Source: a virus
Lineage: Duplodnaviria > Heunggongvirae > Uroviricota > Caudoviricetes
DNA length: 9,413 nt
IMG/VR virus record: IMGVR_UViG_2740892050_000004
Strand: one strand, 5' to 3'
Shown here in pieces: positions 1 to 6,190 of this stretch. The notes below the pieces were generated by a model. The model was not told the DNA's origin, did no database searches, and saw only the letters and a list, made by a program, of their open reading frames with translations. The translations under genes and the position numbers were made by a program. Positions within the stretch are counted from its first letter, which is position 1. Every line of letters starts with the position of its first letter.

Positions 1-322
1 TATGACTGAAAAAGATATTCCGCATGATGGCTGGATAACTGTATCAATCACAATCCACTTCATTTACTTTCCTTGTTTATGCCTTGCTGGTGATGTTCTG
101 AAAAGTATAAATGATATTTTTGAATTAAACCATAGAGCAGAATTATTTTTCTGATGTTGTTTATTGTTTATTTAAATACAGGGTGGTTTATATCTCGTCT
201 TGTAGTTTATCCATGCATATCTGCTTGATAATCAGGTTTTTATTTAAGGTATGGTTTTGTGTTTTTTCTGTATTACATGTCAGGTATTTTAAAGAATTAT
301 TTTTCAGATGGTGGAAAGAACC

Positions 323-511
323 ATGGCATTTAAACACTATGATGTTGTCAGGGCGGCGCCGCCGTCAGATCTTGCGGAAAAGCTGACACATAAACTGAAA
401 GAGGGCTGGCAGCCGTTTGGTAGTCCGGTGGCCATAACCCCTTATACCCTGATGCAGGCGATTGCAGCAGAAGGTGATGTGGTGGTCAGTGGTGCAACTG
501 AGCCGGAGTGA
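323..511 (+). CDS. small conserved phage protein, probably DUF1737 family (62 aa)
   Basis: ORF in the six-frame track (308-511). I prefer the internal ATG at 323 (MAFKHYDVVRA...) because GGAA lies a few nt upstream, whereas the ATG at 308 has no SD. Size and sequence resemble the small DUF1737-type proteins found next to lysis genes in lambdoid prophages (family assignment from memory). Confidence 0.55.
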   Translation: MAFKHYDVVRAAPPSDLAEKLTHKLKEGWQPFGSPVAITPYTLMQAIAAEGDVVVSGATEPE

Positions 512-749
512 TACTACGTCATCGTACTGGCCCGGCATTCTAGGCCATAAAGGACAGTCTGGCAGTGGGACTAAATGCACTGACGCTGACGGATATTACC
601 AAAAATGCAACGTATGGCGTTGAGATAGAAAGTCTGGTGCTGGAGATAAATGTACCGGCATCATCATAAAAAGTGAGCCAGTCAAATGGAAGGTATCGTT
701 AAACTCACCGGTAGTGTCAGTGGATCGTCTGAGACGCTTGCATGAGTTA

Positions 750-786
750 TCAGAGCCATCAGTAGTTAACTGGTGGCTTTTTTATT
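750..786 (+). terminator. Rho-independent terminator upstream of the holin gene (candidate tR-prime-like late terminator)
   Basis: Stem GCCATCAG (755-762) pairs with CTGGTGGC (770-777), one G-U wobble, 7-nt loop, followed by TTTTTTATT (778-786). It lies about 35 nt upstream of the holin start. Confidence 0.5.
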
Positions 787-818
787 GTTGTCAGCTTCCG
801 GATAACGGGAGACGGGGT

Positions 819-1034
819 ATGGACCAGATGGAAAAAATCACAACAGGTGTGTCATACACCACGTCAGCGGTGGGAACGGGCTACTGGTTCCTGCAGTTGC
901 TGGACAGGGTTTCCCCGTCTCAGTGGGCGGCAATAGGCGTGCTGGGGAGTCTGCTGTTTGGGCTGCTGACATATCTGACTAACCTGTATTTCAAAATCAG
1001 AGAGGACCGTCGTAAGGCGGCACGGGGAGAGTAA
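819..1034 (+). CDS. S: class II holin, pinholin of the phage 21 S21 / Qin EssQ type (71 aa), dual-start motif
   Basis: Protein [71 protein letters not shown] has two TM helices and a charged C-terminal tail, and closely resembles the S21 pinholin as I recall it. Two in-frame ATGs at 819 and 828. A GGGAGA/CGGGG purine-rich stretch lies upstream. The long 5' extension in the ORF track (714) is not supported by an RBS and spans the terminator. Confidence 0.9.
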
Positions 1035-1038
1035 TTCA

Positions 1039-1389
1039 ATGACTCAAAACTATGAACTGATTGTGAAAGGGATCCGCAATTTTGAGAATAAAGTTACGGT
1101 AACTTTAGCGTTACGGGACAAAAAACGCTTTGACGGTGAAATTTTTGACCTGGACATCTCGCTGGACCGTGTTGAAGGTGCCGCGCTGGAGTTTTATGAG
1201 GCAGCAGCCAGAAGGAGCATCAGACAGGTCTTCCTGGATGTTGCTGCCGCGTTATGTGAAGGGGATGAGCAGTCGCCGGAAAAGCGCCCCGTAATTTTAG
1301 AGGCGCAGAATGTATGGATAACCTACAAAGGAAAGCTACCGGGAAGAATTACTGGTTCTCTGAAGACTCCTCCGGAATCACAACCTTAA
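1039..1389 (+). CDS. hypothetical protein between holin and endolysin (116 aa), possibly YdfR-like
   Basis: ATG at 1039 lies 4 nt after the holin stop, with GGAGAG 8 nt upstream. The ORF is uninterrupted. No TM segment, signal peptide or catalytic motif recognised. The position matches the uncharacterised ydfR slot of the Qin prophage lysis cassette (from memory, homology unverified). Confidence 0.6.
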   Translation: MTQNYELIVKGIRNFENKVTVTLALRDKKRFDGEIFDLDISLDRVEGAALEFYEAAARRSIRQVFLDVAAALCEGDEQSPEKRPVILEAQNVWITYKGKLPGRITGSLKTPPESQP

Positions 1390-1452
1390 GTCACTGACCG
1401 GAACAGATAAACCTGTCCGTGGGCAGAAACCGATAAATCCTGATAAATATCC

Positions 1453-1986
1453 ATGAACGCAAAAATCAGATACGGCCTGTCGGCTGCCGTTCTGGCACTG
1501 ATTGCCGTCGGTGCGCCCGCGCCTGATATTCTCGACCAGTTTCTGGATGAAAAAGAAGGTAACCACACAACGGCATACCGCGATGGGTCCGGCATCTGGA
1601 CCATCTGTCGGGGGGCCACGATGGTGGATGGAAAACCCGTTTTTCCCGGTATGAAACTGTCGAAGGAAAAATGCGACCAGGTCAACGCCATTGAGCGTGA
1701 TAAGGCGCTGGCATGGGTGGAGCGCAATATTAAAGTACCACTGACCGAACCACAAAAAGCGGGTATAGCGTCATTCTGTCCCTATAACATTGGCCCCGGT
1801 AAGTGTTTCCCGTCGACGTTTTATAAGCGGCTGAATGCCGGTGATCGTAAGGGCGCATGCGAGGCGATTCGCTGGTGGATAAAAGATGGTGGGCGCGATT
1901 GCCGCATACGTTCAAATAACTGCTATGGACAGGTTATTCGTCGTGACCAGGAAAGCGCATTAGCCTGTTGGGGGATAGAGCAGTGA
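1453..1986 (+). CDS. R: SAR endolysin, T4-lysozyme-like (GH24) muramidase with N-terminal signal-anchor-release domain
   Basis: N-terminus has a weakly hydrophobic Gly/Ala-rich segment ([17 protein letters not shown]) typical of SAR domains. Catalytic E-x8-D-x5-T triad is present in [17 protein letters not shown]-terminal region resembles the R21 / P1 Lyz family. No obvious SD upstream. Confidence 0.9.
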
Positions 1987-2444
1987 GCAGAGTCGCCGCG
2001 ATTATTTATGCTTTGGTTATCTGCATCATCGTCTGCCTGTCGTGGGCGGTCAATCATTACCGTGATAACGCCATCGCCTACAAAGAACAGCGTGATAAAA
2101 AAGTCAGTGAGCTGAAGCAGTCGATCGCCACCATCGCTGACATGCAGCAGCGTCAGCGTGATGTTGCTGCACTCGATGCAAAGTACTCGAGAGAATTAGC
2201 CAATGCGAAAGCTGAAAATGAAACTCTGCGCGCTGATGTTGCCGCTGGTCGTCGTCGGTTGCACATCAAAGCAGTCTGTCAGTCAGTGCGTGAAGCCACC
2301 ACCGCCTCCGGCGTGGATAATGCAGCCTCCCCCCGACTGGCAGACACCGCTGAACGGGATTATTTCACCCTCAGAGAGAGGCTGATCACTATGCAAAAAC
2401 AACTGGAAGGAACCCAGAAGTATATTAATGAGCAGTGCAGATAG
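1983..2444 (+). CDS. Rz: Rz i-spanin (inner-membrane spanin subunit)
   Basis: Protein [29 protein letters not shown]...[13 protein letters not shown] has an N-terminal TM helix and coiled-coil periplasmic domain. The N- and C-terminal parts are near-identical to lambda Rz as I recall it. I place the start at GTG 1983, overlapping the endolysin stop (GTGA), rather than the TTG at 1968 used by the ORF track. Confidence 0.85.
2203..2385 (+). CDS. Rz1: Rz1 o-spanin (outer-membrane lipoprotein spanin subunit), embedded in the +1 frame of Rz
   Basis: 60-aa ORF wholly inside Rz. Lipobox LVVVGC with the Cys at position 20, and a proline-rich mature region ([15 protein letters not shown]) characteristic of lambda Rz1. 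Confidence 0.85.
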
Positions 2445-2447
2445 AGC

Positions 2448-2465
2448 TGCCCATATCGATGGGCA
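2448..2465. terminator. hairpin between convergent Rz and bor genes (possible weak bidirectional terminator)
   Basis: TGCCCAT (2448-2454) pairs with ATGGGCA (2459-2465) around a 4-nt loop. It sits in the 31-bp gap between two convergent stop codons. No U-tract on either side, so efficiency is doubtful. Confidence 0.3.
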
Positions 2466-2475
2466 ACTCATGCAA

Positions 2476-2769
2476 TTATTGTGAGCAATACACACGCGCT
2501 TCCAGTGGAGTATAAATGCCTAAAGTAATAAAACCGAGAAATCCATTTACGAATGTTTGCTGGGTTTCTGTTTTAACAACATTTTCTGCGCCGCCACAAA
2601 TTTTGGCTGCATCAACAGTTTTCTCCTGTCCAATTCCCGAAACGAAGAAATGATGGGTGATGGTTTCCTTTGGTGTTACTGCTGTCGGTTTGTTTCCAAC
2701 AGTAAACGTCTGTTGAGCACATCCTGTAATAAGCATTGCCAGAGCGGCAGAAAACAACATTTTTTTCAT
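2476..2769 (-). CDS. bor: Bor/Iss family outer-membrane lipoprotein (serum resistance, lysogenic-conversion moron), 97 aa
   Basis: Protein MKKMLFSAALAMLITGCAQQTFTVGNKPTAVTPKETITHHFFVSGIGQEKTVDAAKICGGAENVVKTETQQTFVNGFLGFITLGIYTPLEARVYCSQ has a lipobox LITGC and is near-identical to lambda Bor / plasmid Iss as I recall them. SD AGGA lies 7 nt upstream of the MKKM start. An in-frame upstream ATG at 2784 (MQDNKMKKM...) would give the 102-aa Iss-style annotation, but it falls inside the SD. Confidence 0.9.
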   Translation of the reverse strand: MKKMLFSAALAMLITGCAQQTFTVGNKPTAVTPKETITHHFFVSGIGQEKTVDAAKICGGAENVVKTETQQTFVNGFLGFITLGIYTPLEARVYCSQ

Positions 2770-2949
2770 CTTATTATCCTGCATTGTTAAAAACGGCAGA
2801 ATCCTATGTGACAACAATTAAACGATAGTTAAATGGATTGATGAAAATTAAAACTATATAGGTGGATGCTCAGCCTATCGGAGGTAGTCAGGATTTGAAT
2901 GTCAGTCTGTTGTCGGCATTCTGGCAATGCAATTTGGATAAAGCGGGGA

Positions 2950-3072
2950 TTAAAAAGATAGAGGCGAGCCGGTCAGGTAGAAATGAATCAGGCTCAAAGT
3001 GAAGCGGAAAAGGTCTGTGGCACAAGCTGATGCAGCCATAATTACAGCCTGATGATTTGTGGAATGAAACAT
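2950..3072 (-). CDS. candidate small protein (40 aa, hydrophobic core) upstream of bor
   Basis: Minus-strand ATG (plus 3070-3072) is preceded by a perfect AGGAGG (plus 3079-3084) with a 6-nt spacer. Product is MFHSTNHQAVIMAASACATDLFRFTLSLIHFYLTGSPLSF, TAA stop at 2950-2952. Too short for the ORF track. No homology known to me. Confidence 0.25.
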   Translation of the reverse strand: MFHSTNHQAVIMAASACATDLFRFTLSLIHFYLTGSPLSF

Positions 3073-3152
3073 GTTGAACCTCCTTAATTGATGTTATTCG
3101 AGTGATGAAGGCATTCTGTCCTTCTATAGTGTCCAGTAAATCAAACAGGAAA

Positions 3153-3174
3153 CTTGTCCAACGTGTTGGACAAG
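3153..3174. promoter_or_regulatory. perfect 10-bp inverted repeat with 2-bp spacer (candidate operator / protein-binding site)
   Basis: CTTGTCCAAC-GT-GTTGGACAAG at 3153-3174, in the non-coding region between bor and HNH. No U-tract follows, so a terminator is unlikely. Confidence 0.3.
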
Positions 3175-3187
3175 CCTCTCCATTAGT

Positions 3188-3208
3188 GAGTTGTATTGAT
3201 CACAACTC
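3188..3208. promoter_or_regulatory. second inverted repeat, 7-bp arms with 7-nt spacer
   Basis: GAGTTGT-ATTGATC-ACAACTC at 3188-3208, 14 bp downstream of the first palindrome and about 90 bp upstream of the HNH start. Confidence 0.2.
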
Positions 3209-3294
3209 TACAAAGAATTCATTACTGGGTAGATGAAAATAGTTTCACTATGAATGGAGGAGGCTATGTCGGTGGCTTCTTCATTGGAGTACAT

Positions 3295-3645
3295 ATGCCC
3301 CCACGAATCCCACGCGCCTGCCGTAAGCGTGGATGTGCAGGTACAACCACAGACAGTTCTGGTTACTGCGATAAACATCGTGGCGAAGGATGGGTACAGC
3401 ATCAACGCGGACTGAGCCGCCACCAGCGTGGCTATGGCTCGAAATGGGATGCCATACGTGCGCGCATACTGAAGCGTGATAATCATCTGTGTCAGAACTG
3501 CCTGCGCAATGGGAGAGCCGTTGAAGCCAGAACTGTGGACCACATCATTCCGAAAGCTCATGGTGGCACGGATGCAGACAGTAACCTGCAGAGTCTGTGC
3601 TGGCCCTGTCATAAAGCAAAAACAGCGCGCGAACGCATCAATTGA
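3295..3645 (+). CDS. HNH homing-type endonuclease associated with the terminase (HK97 gp74-like), 116 aa
   Basis: HNH/zinc-finger motif in CQNCLRNGRAVEARTVDHIIPKAHGGTDADSNLQSLCWPCHKAKT, with further Cys/His pairs in the N-terminal part. Start at ATG 3295 has GGAG 5 nt upstream. The position immediately upstream of terS is typical for HK97-like cos phages. Confidence 0.85.
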   Translation: MPPRIPRACRKRGCAGTTTDSSGYCDKHRGEGWVQHQRGLSRHQRGYGSKWDAIRARILKRDNHLCQNCLRNGRAVEARTVDHIIPKAHGGTDADSNLQSLCWPCHKAKTARERIN

Positions 3646-4275: not shown

Positions 4276-6032
4276 TGGCAAAAGTGGCTGACGGGATCCG
4301 CTACGCCGAACGTGTTGTTGCAGGAGAAATTGTTGCTGGCGAATTTGTCCGCCTGGCCTGCCAGCGTTTTCTTGATGATCTGAAGTACGGCGAAAAGCGG
4401 GGGATTTATTTCAGTGAACCCCGTGCGCAGCACATCCTGAATTTCTACAAATTTGTGCCTCATGTAAAAGGGGCACTGGCAGGCCAGCCCATTGAGTTGA
4501 TGGACTGGCATGTATTTATCCTCATTAATATTTTTGGTTTTGTCATTCCGCTGGTCAATGAAGAAACCGGGGAAGTTGTCATGCGCAGCGATGGCAGCGG
4601 ACGTCCGGTGATGGTGCGCCGGTTCCGGACGGCGTACAACGAAGTCGCCCGTAAAAACGCAAAATCAACCCTGTCATCGGGTATCGGCCTGTATATGACG
4701 GGGGCAGATAGTGAAGGCGGAGCTGAGGTGTATTCAGCCGCAACCACGCGTGACCAGGCCAGAATCGTGTTTGAAGACGCCAAAAATATGGTCAGAAAAG
4801 CCCGGTCGACACTCGGGCGGTTGTTTGATTTCAACAAGCTGGCGATTTACCAGGAGCAGAGCGCATCAAAATTTGAACCGCTTTCCTCGGATGCAAACAA
4901 CCTGGACGGTCTGAACATCCACTGCGCCATTATTGATGAGCTGCATGCACATAAAACCCGCGACGTGTGGGACGTTCTGGAAACGGCAACCGGTGCCCGT
5001 CTGCAGTCCCTGTTATTTGGTATCACCACGGCTGGCTTTAACAAGGAAGGGATTTGTTACGAGCAGCGTGATTACGCCATCAAGGTATTGCGAGGCTATA
5101 ACAGCGACGTGGAGGGCGCTGTAAAAGACGACTCTTACTTTGCGATCATTTACACGCTTGATGAGGGAGATGATCCGTTTGATGAAACGGTCTGGCAGAA
5201 AGCGAATCCTGGCCTGGGCATCTGTAAACGCTGGGATGATCTGCGTCGTCTGGCGAAAAAAGCGAAGGAGCAGGTCTCTGCGCGGGTGAATTTTTTTACC
5301 AAACACATGAATGTGTGGGTCACTGCCGAATCTGCCTGGATGGATATGATTAAGTGGGAGAAGTGCGAATACATTGCTCCACAACATGAGCTGAAAACAT
5401 ATCCCATGTGGGTCGGCGTCGACCTTGCTCATAAGATTGATATCTGTGCGGCGGCAAAACTCTGGCGAACCGATAACGGACATGTTCATGCTGATTTTAA
5501 ATTCTGGCTTCCGGAAGGACGGCTGGAACGATGCTCGCGGCAGCAGGCAGAACTTTACCGGAAGTGGGCGGAGATGGATAAGCTCATCCTGACGGATGGT
5601 GATGTTATCGATCATGCTCAGATAAAAAGTGACTTACTGGAATGGATTGGCGGTGAAAACCTCAGGGAACTGGGATTTGACCCGTGGAGCGCAATGCAGT
5701 TCAGTCTGGCACTGGCTGAAGAAGGGATACCGCTGGTGGAGGTTCCGCAGACGGTCCGCAATCTGTCAGAGGCCATGAAGGAAACGGAATCACTGGTTTA
5801 TGCCGGGCGTTTCCATCACAGCAATCATCCGGTCATGAACTGGATGATGTCTAACGTTACTGTAAAACCGGACAAAAACGACAACATCTTCCCGAATAAA
5901 TCCACGCCGGAAGCCAAAATCGACGGCCCTGTTGCGCTTTTTACAGCCATGAGCCGCTTTCTGGTAAATGGCGGGGGCGTGAATGACTTTCTGTCCACGC
6001 TTGATCCTGATGAGGACCTGTTAATTCTGTGA
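4275..6032 (+). CDS. terminase large subunit (HK97 gp2-like ATPase/nuclease), 585 aa
   Basis: Deviant Walker A region EVARKNAKST, Walker B LNIHCAIIDELH, coupling motif GITTAG, and a C-terminal nuclease-domain-sized region. Translationally coupled to terS. Confidence 0.95.
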   Translation: MAKVADGIRYAERVVAGEIVAGEFVRLACQRFLDDLKYGEKRGIYFSEPRAQHILNFYKFVPHVKGALAGQPIELMDWHVFILINIFGFVIPLVNEETGEVVMRSDGSGRPVMVRRFRTAYNEVARKNAKSTLSSGIGLYMTGADSEGGAEVYSAATTRDQARIVFEDAKNMVRKARSTLGRLFDFNKLAIYQEQSASKFEPLSSDANNLDGLNIHCAIIDELHAHKTRDVWDVLETATGARLQSLLFGITTAGFNKEGICYEQRDYAIKVLRGYNSDVEGAVKDDSYFAIIYTLDEGDDPFDETVWQKANPGLGICKRWDDLRRLAKKAKEQVSARVNFFTKHMNVWVTAESAWMDMIKWEKCEYIAPQHELKTYPMWVGVDLAHKIDICAAAKLWRTDNGHVHADFKFWLPEGRLERCSRQQAELYRKWAEMDKLILTDGDVIDHAQIKSDLLEWIGGENLRELGFDPWSAMQFSLALAEEGIPLVEVPQTVRNLSEAMKETESLVYAGRFHHSNHPVMNWMMSNVTVKPDKNDNIFPNKSTPEAKIDGPVALFTAMSRFLVNGGGVNDFLSTLDPDEDLLIL

Positions 6033-6190
6033 AACAGCTTATTACTGATATGACCGGGCTGATCGGTTTCGGTCTGCTCACTGCTGGCGTTTATCTGTAT
6101 GCAGGTCTGCCAGCGTCTCTGATGCTGTCTGGCTGTTTGTTGCTGCTTTATGCACTGGTGGTGTCCATGAGGAGAAAACATGCTTCTTGA
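6029..6190 (+). CDS. candidate small membrane protein (53 codons, two hydrophobic helices) between terminase and portal
   Basis: GTG at 6029 overlaps the terL stop (GTGA), with GAGGA 11 nt upstream. Alternative ATG at 6050. Product VKQLITDMTGLIGFGLLTAGVYLYAGLPASLMLSGCLLLLYALVVSMRRKHAS, stop at 6188-6190 overlapping the portal start by 11 nt. It fills an otherwise unexplained 147-bp gap in a tightly packed module. Confidence 0.35.
   Translation: MKQLITDMTGLIGFGLLTAGVYLYAGLPASLMLSGCLLLLYALVVSMRRKHAS

Follow-up and report, generated by a model that had tools for sequence, protein, structure and literature searches.

The open reading frame at positions 1039 to 1389 (+ strand) of the DNA stretch analyzed here (9,413 nt from a virus of the Caudoviricetes, IMG/VR record IMGVR_UViG_2740892050_000004, in the following "the window") is, judged by comparison with related loci, a real and intact coding gene and not a chance reading frame. 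It encodes an already catalogued member of the DUF1327 (YdfR) family of unknown function, and thus no new entity. From the comparative data we infer that ydfR is an optional accessory cassette that is mobile in late operons, rather than a component of the lysis machinery. In the explanation that we prefer, and hold to be quite possible, the ORF is an intact DUF1327 gene of the late transcript, which serves as an accessory cassette and whose N-terminal domain docks on the N-terminal half of RNase E and/or on RNA. Roughly four of every five complete E. coli genomes contain a member of the gene family, which lies within one of the best-studied cassettes of phage biology.

Gene structure and neighborhood

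The ATG of the ORF at 1039 follows the TAA of the holin gene (1032-1034) after four bases (ttca). Its stop codon (1387-1389) is separated by 63 nt (1390-1452) from the endolysin ATG at 1453. Sequence reading and junction comparison identify a Shine-Dalgarno sequence, GGGGAGAG (1024..1031, +), within the end of the holin gene, with its GGAG 9 nt 5' of the ydfR ATG. The coordinates, the 4-nt gap, the Shine-Dalgarno sequence of its own and the 63-nt spacer are therefore all as described in the first-pass annotation, which had been made from the sequence alone. The same annotation had named a pinholin and a SAR endolysin as neighbors, and Pfam matches bear this out. Upstream, an S21-type pinholin of 71 aa (819..1034, +) matches PF04971 (P21 holin S family, E 9e-33) and a PHROG for holins, and could start at Met1 (819) or Met4 (828). 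Downstream, a SAR-type endolysin R of 177 aa (1453..1986, +) matches the phage lysozyme family PF00959 (E 1e-24); its N-terminus is Gly/Ala-rich and weakly hydrophobic, and the E-8-D-5-T motif is present. Beyond the endolysin the window contains Rz/Rz1 and Bor, and then HNH, terminase, portal, protease and capsid genes. The entire window is 100% identical to a prophage in E. coli ST131 strains, e.g. JJ1886, O25b:H4.

The product of the ORF has 116 aa and is a soluble, acidic protein (13.1 kDa, pI 5.55). A hydropathy scan and a lipobox match gave no transmembrane segment, signal peptide or lipobox, as had been claimed. The maximal Kyte-Doolittle mean over 19 residues is 0.81, versus 1.7 for the holin and 1.87 for the N-terminus of the SAR endolysin.

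Conservation of the reading frame and selection

Gene integrity was assessed in 80 IMG/VR loci that had been picked via ydfR itself. Disruption in close relatives had been named as an observation that would speak against the gene, and none was seen: the ORF was intact in all 78 loci whose frame stops within the locus, with lengths of 104, 114, 116, 183 or 268 aa. In all 74 ydfR-selected loci with upstream flank, the gap between the holin stop and the ydfR ATG was exactly 4 nt, and the DUF1327 gene of these Escherichia lambdoid (pro)phages was flanked by an S21-type holin and a SAR-type lysozyme.

For module A of the protein (codons 1-72, see below), the Nei-Gojobori method applied to 339 allele pairs gave a dN/dS of 0.25 with a dN of 0.235, which places the gene under purifying selection. 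The corresponding values for holin and endolysin from the same loci were 0.07 and 0.04. By this measure, the YdfR protein is constrained, yet diverges about six times faster than its lysis neighbors.

An embedded ORF in the +1 frame (1130-1294) is open in most alleles of both clades, and its stop-free run of 61 codons exceeds the codon-shuffle mean of 33 (P ~0.02). In 9/60 unique alleles this frame is interrupted, and in the K-12-type allele it is short (35 aa); we treated it as a by-product, probably of codon content.

Family membership and distribution

The first-pass annotation had left the product unassigned, which proved to be wrong, and had listed DUF1327 among the profiles worth searching. 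In Pfam, residues 1-112 align to positions 1-92 of the 93 positions of the DUF1327 model (PF07041) with an E-value of 7e-43 and 145.1 bits (cut-off 25). All core residues of the family (Y5, E6, V9, Y53-E54, A57, L72) are present in the window protein, and NCBI lists identical or 97% identical proteins under the name "YdfR family protein". The PHROG matches (406, 2091 and 1085) are all of unknown function. NCBIfam has no family for the product, Rfam gave no match in the window, and a PDB sequence search found nothing with the single sequence and only noise (E > 1) with the profile. A match to a 3128-aa protein with G2F repeats (E 8e-9) was treated as a beta-strand repeat artefact.

Identical copies of the gene are found in E. 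coli ST131 genomes, and megablast detected a match in 4234 of 5426 complete E. coli genomes, with up to six copies per genome. The 101 matching phage records are all from lambdoid phages of E. coli, including H-19B, BP-4795, Stx1a/Stx2c phages, mEp460 and Stx2 phage 86. The family is nevertheless narrow: 1.84 billion proteins include no more than 64 representatives of it at 50% identity. When one genome of each species was scanned, it was found in Escherichia and Shigella only, apart from two metagenome-assembled genomes that look contaminated.

In the Qin cryptic prophage of E. coli K-12, the gene order is essQ-ydfR-rrrQ-rzpQ; the earlier statement that ydfR occupies the same slot there is therefore correct. 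K-12 YdfR (b1555, P76160) shares with the window protein the family and the slot between holin and endolysin, and the N-terminal 72 residues are 81-82% identical. In contrast, the K-12 protein has 103 aa and an unrelated tail, with homology to the window ending at around codon 69. The stop codon of K-12 ydfR overlaps the endolysin start, whereas in the window module A is followed by module B and then by the 63-nt spacer.

Modular organization of the protein

The DUF1327 core, here called module A, comprises codons 1-72 (1039..1254, +) and was delimited from the PF07041 match, the alignment and the AlphaFold2 (AF2) model. Within it, Y53, E54 and A57 do not vary, even at only 25% identity. Module A is followed by an acidic linker, CEGDEQS (codons 73-79, 1255..1275, +), in the vicinity of two mosaic breakpoints detected by blastn, at window position 1244 (approximately codon 69, K-12 type) and at position 1290 (approximately codon 84, 104-aa type). 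In the K-12 allele, all sequence after around codon 69 is replaced, and in another allele all sequence after codon 84, which results in the 104-aa form. Module B (codons 80-112, 1276..1374, +) has the sequence PEKRPVILEAQNVWITYKGKLPGRITGSLKTPP and was recognized by its cross-clade conservation, as it is 83-100% conserved across clades with a module A that is only about 50% identical. In protein P0145, module B is found behind a coiled-coil module, without module A. The window protein ends with an allele-specific tail (ESQP and stop, 1375..1389, +), at the point where homology to the long forms (176-296 aa) ceases (blastn homology ends at 1374 for locus L022 and at 1378 for locus L012).

Other alleles continue past codon 112, either with a coiled-coil module (176/183 aa), with a module of about 120 aa (268, 296 and 328 aa) or with another module (206 aa). 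The long proteins, such as gp05 of Stx2-converting phage 86 (268 aa), the 176/183-aa forms and the 296-aa form, have the same modules A and B and the same left junction as the window ORF. They add the coiled-coil and/or the C-terminal module of about 120 aa, often together with a convergent antisense gene, whereas the window allele stops after module B. The window ORF is the minimal form, consisting of modules A and B. Compared to the commonest 114-aa arrangement, the window allele lacks 292 nt, including a convergent antisense gene for a 90-aa protein.

Structure prediction followed by Foldseek, as proposed in the first-pass annotation, yielded a confident model for the N-terminal domain, with no specific neighbor. 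Modeled alone, module A reached a pLDDT of 84.8 and a pTM of 0.70, with predicted strands at residues 5-14, 18-27 and 33-43 and a helix at residues 50-73; AF2 confidence for module B was low (pLDDT < 50). Foldseek searches against the PDB and viral models returned nothing below an E-value of 0.02, and thus no informative structural neighbor. The window protein differs from a dsRBD, which is characterized by an alpha-beta-beta-beta-alpha order with an N-terminal helix and by a profile match. As far as the model goes, the structural evidence would neither help nor hurt a mechanism that involves RNase E or RNA.

The slot between holin and endolysin

A survey of synteny, also suggested at the outset, covered 79 loci with both holin (S) and endolysin (R), most of them chosen for a holin of at least 97% identity. 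The distance between S and R varied from 4 nt to 2125 nt, with one additional locus at 1 nt. In the 10 loci with a distance of 4 nt, the endolysin ATG is located exactly where ydfR has its ATG. Loci with a ydfR allele had S-R distances of 311-2125 nt. At distances of 596-1316 nt, there were also loci with a gene made of coiled-coil and C-terminal modules only, the same modules as those fused to long YdfR proteins. A single identical holin protein was associated with ydfR of clade A90 (17 loci), ydfR of clade A50 (15 loci), C-D module proteins (7 loci) and a directly adjacent endolysin (2 loci), and the window holin protein, or variants of it that differ in one residue, was found with all slot contents. 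The flanks are thus fixed, while the content is swapped, extended, truncated or absent, which marks the S-R slot as a recombination hot spot.

Two statements of the first-pass annotation gain support from the survey. The gene had been described as not belonging to the minimal lysis machinery, and 11 IMG/VR loci with an at least 97% identical holin indeed have the endolysin directly at the place of ydfR. It had also been called a conserved passenger of the slot between pinholin and SAR endolysin, which agrees with an intervening ORF that is recurrent but optional.

Genes with a coiled-coil and a C-terminal module in place of ydfR, next to the same holin, were observed in locus L029 (2846-3406), locus L060 (3220-3777) and locus L027 (1612-2256), and encode proteins of 185-214 aa. 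Locus L027 additionally carries a separate, divergent module A gene of 75 aa. No Pfam or PADLOC family was found for the coiled-coil and C-terminal modules of such genes.

The spacer between ydfR and the endolysin gene (1390..1452, +) was analyzed by junction comparison and blastn. Its part from 1398 to 1452 is homologous to the spacer of slot variants with an extra antisense gene, and positions 1428-1452 correspond to a conserved A/T-rich endolysin leader, aaccgataaatcctgataaatatcc, that has no Shine-Dalgarno sequence. In nearly every insert-bearing variant, the endolysin ATG is preceded by the same or a close A/T-rich leader, typically (a)accgataaatcctgataaatatcc. In variants with adjacent S and R, this leader is absent and the endolysin uses GGGGAGAG at the holin end, the sequence that serves ydfR in the window. 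Because the leader without Shine-Dalgarno sequence accompanies the inserts and GGGGAGAG is used when S and R are adjacent, the comparison suggests that inserts lower or re-wire the translation of the endolysin. A hairpin in the spacer (approximately 1400-1418) was set aside, as it is not conserved in related spacers.

Relatives outside the lysis cassette and convergent partners

The two remotest DUF1327 homologues consist essentially of module A alone (one of them with a short C-terminal extension) and are encoded in tail operons. P0176 (72 aa) is flanked by tail genes from families M and L, and P0170 (94 aa) by tail genes from families I and J. In both cases a small convergent antisense gene comes next, as it does in many S-R slots. 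For the two tail-operon loci (L094 and L095), the phage collection contained nothing close. DUF1327 should therefore be regarded as a mobile insert of late operons and not as a lysis-specific factor.

The convergent antisense genes encode proteins of 74-116 aa (L012 2411-2683, L022 1399-1665, L046 4037-4351, L094 696-1001 and L095 4282-4506). Among one another, these proteins have no detectable sequence similarity, and one is annotated as DUF1823. The window allele is without such a partner.

Expression

A scan for the sigma-70 consensus only detected no sigma-70-like site on the + strand of window positions 1-3300, and on this strand neither promoter-like nor terminator-like sites flank the ORF. 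No reads were reported for K-12 ydfR in growing cells, i.e., the gene was silent (PMC13232886). These observations support the late, lysis-coupled expression that had been assumed initially, and ydfR is, as far as the sequence tells, probably expressed only from the late transcript.

A moron function had also been considered. Lambdoid morons (bor, lom and HK97 gp15) resemble ydfR as optional inserts between essential late genes with a patchy distribution, and the location of remote ydfR relatives between tail genes is likewise moron-like. A classical moron brings along a promoter and a terminator of its own, and the lysogen expresses it. In contrast, ydfR points in the direction of the late operon, begins 4 nt behind the holin stop and has no promoter-like site. 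The ORF therefore departs from a moron with regard to a promoter and terminator of its own and to expression in the lysogen.

Evidence for a possible interaction with RNase E and RNA

The first-pass annotation had described the gene as unstudied, which is outdated. We found one functional study of YdfR, on the K-12 protein (RNA Biol 2026, PMC13232886), which reports binding to the N-terminal half of RNase E and co-purification with RNA. A two-hybrid screen that used RNase G as the bait yielded codons 1-72 of K-12 ydfR three times, and YdfR 1-72 gave stronger two-hybrid signals with RNase E constructs (PMC13232886). Full-length YdfR was positive with Rne1-597, and with the short-linker fusion only Rne1-597 was positive, while Rne1-415, Rne1-498, full-length Rne and Rng were negative (PMC13232886). 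Chromosomally encoded Rne1-598-FLAG co-eluted with Strep-YdfR, and DNase-resistant nucleic acid was also co-purified (PMC13232886). As the co-purification was done without nuclease treatment, bridging by RNA is possible (PMC13232886). Over-production of YdfR changed few transcripts and did not slow growth (PMC13232886). The link to RNase E comes from a single study with an over-produced, tagged K-12 protein (PMC13232886).

We prefer the explanation by docking on RNase E and/or RNA because the window protein is 81-82% identical to residues 1-72 of K-12 YdfR, the part that was enough for a two-hybrid signal. By homology, the window protein may bind RNase E as well. As reported for K-12, the N-terminal domain would attach to the N-terminal half of RNase E, to RNA or to both, the phage would thereby adjust RNA decay late in infection, and the variable C-terminal modules would change what is recruited. 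Against this mechanism, the tail of the window protein (module B) differs from the K-12 tail, and the acidic pI of 5.55, not usual in proteins that bind RNA directly, speaks against simple RNA binding.

Other small proteins reported to bind RNase E, like YdfR, are Dip (gp37) of phage phiKZ, Srd of phage T4 and the host adaptor RapZ. T4 Srd contacts the N-terminal half of RNase E, as is reported for YdfR. A contact to the N-terminal half has also been reported for RapZ (PMC13232886).

A phenotype of the Keio ydfR mutant in an envelope screen was not used further, since a polar effect on the downstream endolysin gene rrrQ would be the simpler reading.

Alternative explanations

YdfR could instead be an accessory protein for counter-defense or exclusion that acts on another target than RNase E, so that the RNase E signal would be incidental. 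Fast-evolving, shuffled late proteins would then neutralize late-triggered abortive infection/defense, or block superinfecting phages. We consider this possible, but rather less probable than not. It would fit the presence/absence polymorphism and the shuffling of modules in a fixed slot, an amino-acid divergence six-fold above that of neighboring genes, confirmed hosts that are only Escherichia and Shigella, and the repeated pairing with a convergent small antisense gene in the slot as well as in tail operons. However, PADLOC contained no family at E <= 0.05 for the window protein and none for modules C, D and E (a weak match, PDC-S51 at 1.6e-5, concerned an antisense partner absent from the window), the dN/dS does not reach 1, and the antisense partner is missing from the window allele.

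A role in lysis timing or regulation had been among the suggestions of the first-pass annotation. As a cytoplasmic regulator, YdfR would be an antiholin-like factor that binds the basic cytoplasmic tail of the holin, comparable to P1 LydB and T4 RIII, which are small soluble proteins like YdfR, with LydB encoded beside its holin. The gene begins 4 nt after the holin stop with its Shine-Dalgarno sequence inside the holin gene, the DUF1327 gene of E. coli phages occurs only beside S21-type holins, YdfR is acidic while the holin tail is basic, and the holin extension MDQ is without the lysine of the phage 21-type MKS. Yet the identical holin coexists with either of two YdfR clades that share only about 50% identity, with unrelated C-D proteins or with an empty slot, the remote DUF1327 genes are in tail operons, far from any holin, and Pfam and PHROG searches gave no sequence similarity to LydB or RIII. 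Separate-gene antiholins are recognized by homology or by co-variation with the holin, and the ORF shows neither; in both respects, and in having members outside lysis cassettes, YdfR is unlike LydB and RIII. The missing co-variation between holin and slot content, together with the two homologues in tail operons, disfavors a role in lysis timing, which we regard as unlikely. Still more doubtful, and in our estimate very improbable, is a translational spacer or coupling device, by which the strong Shine-Dalgarno sequence is moved off the endolysin and the SD-less leader lowers the R:S ratio, while the protein itself matters little. This would account for the SD-less R leader common to all, or nearly all, insert-bearing variants, for the use of GGGGAGAG by R in adjacent S-R variants and for the overlap of the K-12 ydfR stop with the R start. 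A pure spacer role is contradicted by the purifying selection on module A (dN/dS 0.25) and by the N-domain, confidently modeled as a folded unit; the invariance of Y53, E54 and A57 down to 25% identity and the homologues outside the lysis cassette also speak against it.

If docking on RNase E and/or RNA, the explanation that we prefer, is true, YdfR would be a late-acting modulator of RNA decay in temperate coliphages, among them the Stx phages and the ST131 prophage of the window. A broader and speculative view, to which we give little credence, is that the S-R slot as a whole is a dedicated diversity locus for domain-shuffled late proteins, in which DUF1327 docks on RNase E/RNA, the C-terminal effectors are interchangeable and the convergent partner is maybe expressed in the lysogen. 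This would amount to an undescribed system for hijacking RNA decay or for counter-defense. Should the slot instead take part in an arms race, it would offer a new site for the search for counter-defense genes. The most interesting by-product of the analysis is the comparative view of the slot, in which the flanks are fixed, the modules shuffled and convergent partners frequent, and homologues also lie in tail operons; it concerns the YdfR family rather than the window ORF. For annotation, ORF 1039-1389 should not be labeled as a lysis gene.

Other features of the window

Several features near the lysis cassette and in the packaging region were observed in passing. A strong terminator-like hairpin with a 12-pair stem and a T-run is located at 752-780 (+), 39 nt 5' of the holin ATG. 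It lies within the late transcription unit, where Q-modified polymerase presumably reads through it. Further upstream, positions 308-511 (+) encode a stand-alone DUF1737 protein of 67 aa. At that place, upstream of the holin, Stx phages encode NanS-p, the N-terminal domain of which is DUF1737 (PMC10462455).

The dual-start extension of the window holin (819-830) reads Met-Asp-Gln and has no lysine, while phage 21-like and K-12-like alleles in other loci have Met-Lys-Ser. In the phage 21-type MKS extension, it is the lysine that turns the longer holin product into an antiholin.

An HNH endonuclease gene (PF01844; 3196-3645, +) is found directly 5' of the small terminase gene, as in HK97-like packaging modules. 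Finally, a strongly hydrophobic ORF of 53 aa (6029-6190, +) is located between the large terminase and portal genes and overlaps both; its counterpart in phage ON470612 is annotated as hypothetical.
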